DNA of 64,000 bases from Escherichia coli (lineage in GTDB: Bacteria; Pseudomonadota; Gammaproteobacteria; Enterobacterales; Enterobacteriaceae), in the NCBI RefSeq assembly GCF_030013595.1, contig NZ_CP122768.1. One strand, given 5' to 3'. Of the stretch, positions 56,444 to 56,463 are shown piece by piece. Each line of letters begins with the position of its first letter. Position 1 is the first letter of the stretch. The notes below the pieces were generated by a model, which did no database searches, had not been told where the DNA came from, and saw only the letters and a program-made list of their open reading frames with translations. A program made the position numbers and the translations under genes.

Positions 56444-56463
<20 letters not shown>
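55144..56463 (-). CDS. C: Capsid assembly protease C (ClpP/SppA-like serine protease)
   Basis: ORF 55144..56598; product begins (V)[36 protein letters not shown]... with GTG at 56461-56463 as the only plausible start at the conserved N-terminus; overlaps B 3' end. Confidence 0.9.

Follow-up and report, generated by a model that had tools for sequence, protein, structure and literature searches.

Organization of the locus

The window, by which we mean the whole stretch of 64,000 nucleotides that was analysed, contains a series of phage head genes in the lambda-type order portal, C with its nested Nu3, decoration gene D and major capsid gene E, as read from the open reading frames of the window and from the annotation of near-identical prophages. 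The window also holds pheP, cusCFBA, cusRS, nfrBA, ompT and rrrD/rzpD, a content that marks the element as a prophage of lambda type, situated at the DLP12 locus of an Escherichia coli chromosome. Coordinates are collected in Table 1.

Table 1. Junction of genes B and C, associated features and further GTG starts (window positions; features on the minus strand are written from their 5' end, except for the overlap)
Feature	Position	Strand	Details
Portal gene B	58045..56444	minus	533 aa; ATG at 58045, stop TAA 56446..56444; from the ORF list, BLASTP against lambda B and PGAP on relatives
Gene C (S49-family prohead protease with C-terminal scaffold part)	56463..55144	minus	439 aa
GTG initiation codon of gene C	56463..56461	minus	From sequence reading and homologues
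B/C overlap	56444..56463	minus	20 nt; direct reading; same arrangement in lambda at 4418-4437
Shine-Dalgarno purine run AGAGGAGGAG	56477..56468	minus	Inside B; core AGGAGG at 56475..56470
Nested in-frame scaffold gene Nu3 (predicted)	55749..55144	minus	ATG 55749..55747; product MDATRRMFAQKV...; position equals lambda nu3 5132..5737
GTG start of pheP	17129..17127	minus	Annotated start in K-12 MG1655 and by PGAP
GTG start of nfrB	25785..25787	plus	K-12 start, 745 aa
GTG start of Rz/rzpD	63417..63415	minus	Annotated start in K-12 and by PGAP

An earlier note on this DNA had proposed that gene C begins with GTG inside the 3' end of the portal gene. The reading bears this out, with the two genes sharing exactly 20 nucleotides, and both the lambda reference and PGAP agree; the latter places the C start on the same GTG in E. 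coli strains D3, QEC11-421 and HCP5S3_I2. On the B side, the overlap is made up of the last six sense codons and the stop (AGT GAC AGC AGA GCT GCG TAA), while in the other frame it is made up of codons 1 to 6 of C and two bases of codon 7 (GTG ACA GCA GAG CTG CGT AA). Read 5' to 3' on the minus strand, the junction is ...ACAGAGGAGGAGAAGA GTG ACA GCA GAG CTG CGT AAT CTC CCG..., and the stretch from 56500 to 56420 is GAATCCGGGCTGCGACAATCAACAGAGGAGGAGAAGA-GTG-ACAGCAGAGCTGCGTAATCTCCCGCATATTGCCAGCATGG, so that the start codon of C lies 17 nt upstream of the stop codon of B. The open frame to which C belongs reaches back to 56598, but the product that matches lambda gpC starts only at the GTG. The note had added that no in-frame ATG lies near this N terminus; the start at GTG stands, but in-frame ATGs do follow it, at codons 14 and 21.

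The product of gene C is identical to lambda gpC at 430 of 439 positions without gaps (98%; nine substitutions), and the portal protein gpB is 99% identical to its lambda counterpart, from which it differs by seven substitutions (BLASTP). Residues 150-297 of gpC match Peptidase_S49 (PF01343; E = 8.1e-44; score 149.7 bits, cutoff 24.9), and the structure search returned SppA relatives (E = 1e-21) as the sole matches, with no solved gpC structure found in it. Two residues, S166 and K218, are invariant in nine homologues, down to 51% identity, and are presumably the Ser/Lys dyad of the S49 family, as candidate catalytic residues. The predicted Nu3 shares its C terminus with gene C, and its ATG and translation were confirmed in the sequence. 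The gpC protein is a minor component of the head, with levels far below those of Nu3.

Ribosome-binding site of gene C

Upstream of the GTG lies a canonical Shine-Dalgarno core, AGGAGG, with a spacer of 6 nt and a calculated duplex with the 3' end of 16S rRNA (the anti-Shine-Dalgarno sequence) of -12.0 kcal/mol. By direct reading, both this tract and the start codon that it precedes fall within B, on the strand of B but in another frame. For comparison, the duplex energy is +1.2 kcal/mol for the 20 nt before the ATG at codon 14, -1.9 kcal/mol before the ATG at codon 21 and about -4 kcal/mol each for the starts of B and Nu3. Most haplotypes retain the AGGAGG; in three of the 12 N-terminal types of gpC that we distinguished, the tract is degenerate. 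Across these 12 types, no clear difference in Shine-Dalgarno strength was found between GTG and ATG lineages. Folding of the 100 nt around the start revealed no RNA structure masking the C initiation site (minimum free energy -28.2, mean of shuffled sequences -32.05; z = +1.05).

Comparison with phage lambda and homologous junctions

The GTG start of C and the 20-nt overlap with B are already known, since phage lambda has both in its reference annotation. In that genome (NC_001416), B occupies 2836..4437, C occupies 4418..5737 and starts with GTG, and nu3 is nested at 5132..5737, which is the arrangement of the window. The lambda triplet at 4418 is GTG in an identical context, GAGGAGGAGAAGA-GTG-ACAGCAGAGCTGCGTAA. 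Common to the two are thus the GTG start, the AGGAGGAGAAGA spacer context, the length of the overlap, the TAA within CGT-AAT and the place of Nu3. The window copy differs in that it resides in a chromosome, as a prophage at the DLP12 locus, and in that its terminase gene A carries an amber codon.

Other overlapping pairs of phage late operons (W/B, R/Rz and nu1/A) resemble B/C in having the downstream start and its Shine-Dalgarno sequence inside the upstream gene, with a short overlap that is out of frame. In contrast to the usual 1-4 nt of generic translationally coupled overlapping pairs, however, the B/C overlap extends over 20 nt.

To place the start codon, we compared homologous junctions in a scan that took one genome per species and yielded 25 loci. 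Thirteen of the 25, with 69-77% amino acid identity (Enterobacter-like, Leclercia, Kluyvera, Citrobacter, Pluralibacter, Trabulsiella and others), have ATG as the homologous codon where C has its GTG. An in-frame TGA lies nine codons upstream of this ATG, and there is no shift in position of either the AGGAGG or the TAA with which the portal gene ends, within CGT-AAT. In nine of these 13, the ATG is the only ATG, GTG or TTG codon between the TGA and the conserved N-terminal motif. The other four (L010, L011, L025 and L027) have an extra in-frame ATG or TTG close by, situated within or too near the Shine-Dalgarno tract, while the homologous ATG is correctly spaced. Homologues of the MTPELRNL and MAHELRNL types, which come from Enterobacter, Leclercia, Kluyvera, Citrobacter and others, are like the window in start position, Shine-Dalgarno sequence and 20-nt overlap with the portal stop; they are unlike it in starting with ATG and in having the upstream TGA, which has been lost in the lambda clade.

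Loci at 58-61% identity have an ATG start one to three codons further in, and in at least three of them (L017-L019) the C start still overlaps the portal stop; at L016 the portal stop was not located. Homologues thus share the start codon position of C or begin at a neighboring codon, rather than at a different, ATG-initiated position. Within 10 codons of the conserved motif, 11 of the 12 N-terminal types have just one candidate start. Variation between the B stop and codon 14 of C, across 83 haplotypes, is 0.006, 0.000 and 0.185 at the first, second and third codon positions; some of these columns are set by the search pattern, and the free columns, from +29 on, have the same pattern. Such concentration of variation on third positions argues that the stretch between the B stop and codon 14 is coding sequence.

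Variation of the start codon across the family

How general the GTG is was approached with a DNA pattern in which the first base of the codon was left free. Among the 120 viral contigs retrieved, the start was GTG in 54, all of a single lambda haplotype, and ATG in 66, of many haplotypes; neither CTG nor TTG occurred at this position in any of the 120. Over all loci fetched, GTG was present in 135 of 135 contigs of the lambda type (MTAELRNL). A scan of viral contigs with a protein pattern recovered only lambda-type copies that were 98-100% identical and added no diversity. These counts should be read with the haplotype survey being constrained in part by its search pattern.

A second DNA pattern, unbiased as to start codon, was aimed at the distant RNLSHI clade, whose gpC homologues of ~500 aa come from prophages of E. 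albertii, Trabulsiella and Providencia and from a large number of E. coli viral contigs. These are like the window in starting mostly with GTG, in having a Shine-Dalgarno sequence upstream and in having the portal stop in CGT-AAT; they are unlike it in an overlap of 11 nt, in an amino acid identity of 50-57%, in a longer C-terminal repeat region and in including one ATG sublineage. The commonest type of the clade, VRRNLSHII, has GTG in 86 of 86 cases, with a TAG 13 codons upstream of RNLSHI and no Met in about the first 30 residues, so that initiation is possible at the GTG alone. GTG is also the start in two or three further sublineages of the clade, and ATG in one.

Fitch parsimony on a neighbor-joining tree of 26 representatives requires at least three changes between ATG and GTG across the family, one reversal to ATG inside a GTG clade being among the observations. 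GTG is the start in four of the 12 N-terminal types, compared with a background of 14% GUG starts in E. coli (bioRxiv 10.1101/063800), and this excess is not significant (binomial P = 0.075, with shared ancestry ignored). Throughout the family, C initiates from a site set within the final codons of the portal gene, the two genes sharing 20, 17, 14 or 11 nt. What is conserved, then, is a start embedded in the portal gene together with a Shine-Dalgarno sequence that is strong in most lineages, and not the GTG.

Proposed coupling of B and C and the dosage of the protease

Taken together, we consider the B-C junction to be that of an ordinary head gene cluster of the lambda type, carried by a prophage at the DLP12 site, with C initiating at the GTG by way of the embedded AGGAGG and with B and C probably coupled, a reading to which we give a probability of about 0.9. 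The position of the C start comes entirely from comparative and sequence evidence. The mechanism that we envisage begins with the AGGAGG within the portal coding sequence, which, from 6 nt upstream, would drive initiation at the GTG. The initiation site lies inside B on a single late mRNA, and ribosomes translating or terminating on B may hold it open. Ribosomes that end B could then reinitiate at C, a translational coupling that we take from what is generally known of polycistronic phage late mRNAs, and the synthesis of C would thereby be tied to that of B. Coupling of this kind would be sensible, since the procapsid initiator complex is made up of B, C and Nu3 (PMC3224144).

The contribution of the GTG itself is a separate question. 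In reporter assays, GUG and UUG supported 10-100% of the initiation obtained with AUG (bioRxiv 10.1101/063800). A GTG might thus be expected to reduce initiation of C somewhat, or modestly, relative to ATG, and the very strong Shine-Dalgarno sequence would offset this weakness, which fits the standing of C as a minor head protein. The ratios of late-gene expression have reportedly been ascribed to translation initiation by Sampson et al. in 1988, and full-text literature searching returned nothing specific on the N terminus of gpC or on B:C expression. The suggestion of the earlier note that a weak start codon and the overlap tune the ratio of C to B is plausible, with any part of the GTG in that ratio being conjectural. 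Sister clades with the same overlap and the same Shine-Dalgarno sequence use ATG, however, and there have been at least three switches, which argues that the GTG is no conserved requirement. A specific tuning role for the GTG would therefore appear to be unsupported by conservation.

A stronger form of this proposal holds that the GTG is an adaptive attenuator, with selection repeatedly swapping ATG for GTG so that the protease is kept substoichiometric to the portal. The fixation of GTG in the lambda-type and VRRNLSHII-type contigs and its presence in four of 12 N-terminal types against the E. coli background are in keeping with this, as is the GTG start, in lambda and in the window alike, of gene A, which encodes the terminase large subunit, a nonstructural DNA-packaging enzyme. 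Against it are the enrichment falling short of significance, the ATG reversal within a GTG clade and the eight lineages that function with ATG in the same context. Furthermore, the ATG/GTG difference in lambda belongs to a GA to AG change by which the variable C-terminal tail of B acquires an altered residue as well (KDDARAA versus KSDSRAA), so that drift would suffice. We regard adaptive attenuation as unlikely, and neutral drift is an adequate explanation that accounts for the GTG as well as tuning does.

A related and somewhat less likely idea is that the start codon of C behaves as an evolutionary rheostat, in which the ATG/GTG toggles, at least three in number, would reset the dosage of the protease relative to portal and Nu3, with excess or shortage impairing procapsid maturation; we offer this as speculation. 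For experiments on dosage, the conservation of the embedded start, and not of the GTG, narrows the target.

Alternative start sites and annotation of gpC

Two other placements of the C start have to be weighed against initiation at the GTG. According to the better of them, which we nevertheless hold to be highly improbable, C starts at the in-frame ATG of codon 14 (56424..56422, minus strand) or codon 21 (56403..56401, minus strand), and the GTG belongs to an untranslated spacer. ATG is the commoner start codon, and the RefSeq phage ev207, 100% identical over a 501-nt query spanning the junction (window 56200-56700), is annotated from codon 21. Neither ATG is preceded by a Shine-Dalgarno sequence, however, as the duplex energies above attest, and neither Met is conserved: in homologues with RNL[PS]HIA retained upstream, Met14 is replaced by Leu, Val or Ala (IASL, AAV, AAA), with Val or Ala in the RNLSHI clade, and Met21 is frequently Leu (PLLLE). 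Moreover, codons 8-13 of C vary on third positions only, and the VRRNLSHII clade, with its stop 13 codons upstream of RNLSHI, has no in-frame ATG in the first ~30 codons.

Initiation further upstream, as far as a GTG at 56598, to give a protein of 481-484 aa, is more improbable still: the C frame of the lambda clade is indeed open for 192 nt upstream of a conserved Pro codon (Pro9 of C), and this long frame is the one taken in two database entries, P0007 (484 aa) and P0017 (481 aa), but sister clades have an in-frame stop there, the TGA nine codons upstream of the start in the ATG clade meaning that an extension cannot be conserved, the strong Shine-Dalgarno sequence lies directly before 56463 (in a scoring that covered 56463 and the downstream ATGs), and the 439-aa form is the one found in sequence clusters whose members number in the thousands.

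For C genes of identical or near-identical sequence, public records conflict with one another, with starts at Met21 (419 aa; phage ev207, NC_049949, locus L002, position 2298), at the GTG (439 aa) or in the upstream frame (481-484 aa). Several database proteins are fusions of portal and C or of terminase and C, and these look frameshifted or misassembled. The practical value of placing the start at the GTG is one of annotation, since among products of 419, 439, 481 and 484 aa, it is the 439-aa form that is defensible.

Other GTG starts and the rest of the window

The GTG starts that had also been suggested for pheP, nfrB and Rz are all present and match the curated annotation of K-12 MG1655. 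For nfrB, there is a conflict with PGAP, which, in a genome identical over window positions 15500-26500, starts the gene at an ATC at 25836, 17 codons downstream (728 aa), an unusual noncanonical call. E. coli D3, in which the junction is a 100% match, carries the prophage at a different chromosomal site and was left out of the pheP and nfrB comparisons. At the lysis genes, the stop of R (rrrD) and the start of Rz (rzpD) form a GTGA overlap (63414-63417, minus strand). No excess of GTG starts was found for the window, with five among the 44 annotated coding sequences in a close relative compared to 6.2 expected at 14%.

Gene A (60170..58245, minus strand) starts with GTG in the window (60168-60170, minus strand) and in lambda (711). 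Its codon 443 (58842-58844) is an in-frame amber TAG where lambda has GAG (Glu), splitting the 641-codon gene into open reading frames of 442 and 185 aa. Unless the amber is a sequencing error, the prophage is probably packaging defective.

Two observations concern the genomes retrieved for comparison. The locus L021, from a metagenome-assembled genome labelled Collinsella sp. (Actinomycetota; JAIJJM010000092.1), is identical over ~120 nt of the gpC junction to L022, from Escherichia albertii, and both have 53% amino acid identity to the query; the assignment to Collinsella is most likely due to binning contamination. In E. coli D3 (L030, 26772-28671), outside the window, a gene with a reverse transcriptase domain stands next to one with a SLATT domain where the related prophage ends, a pair that looks like a retron- or DRT-type defense cassette.
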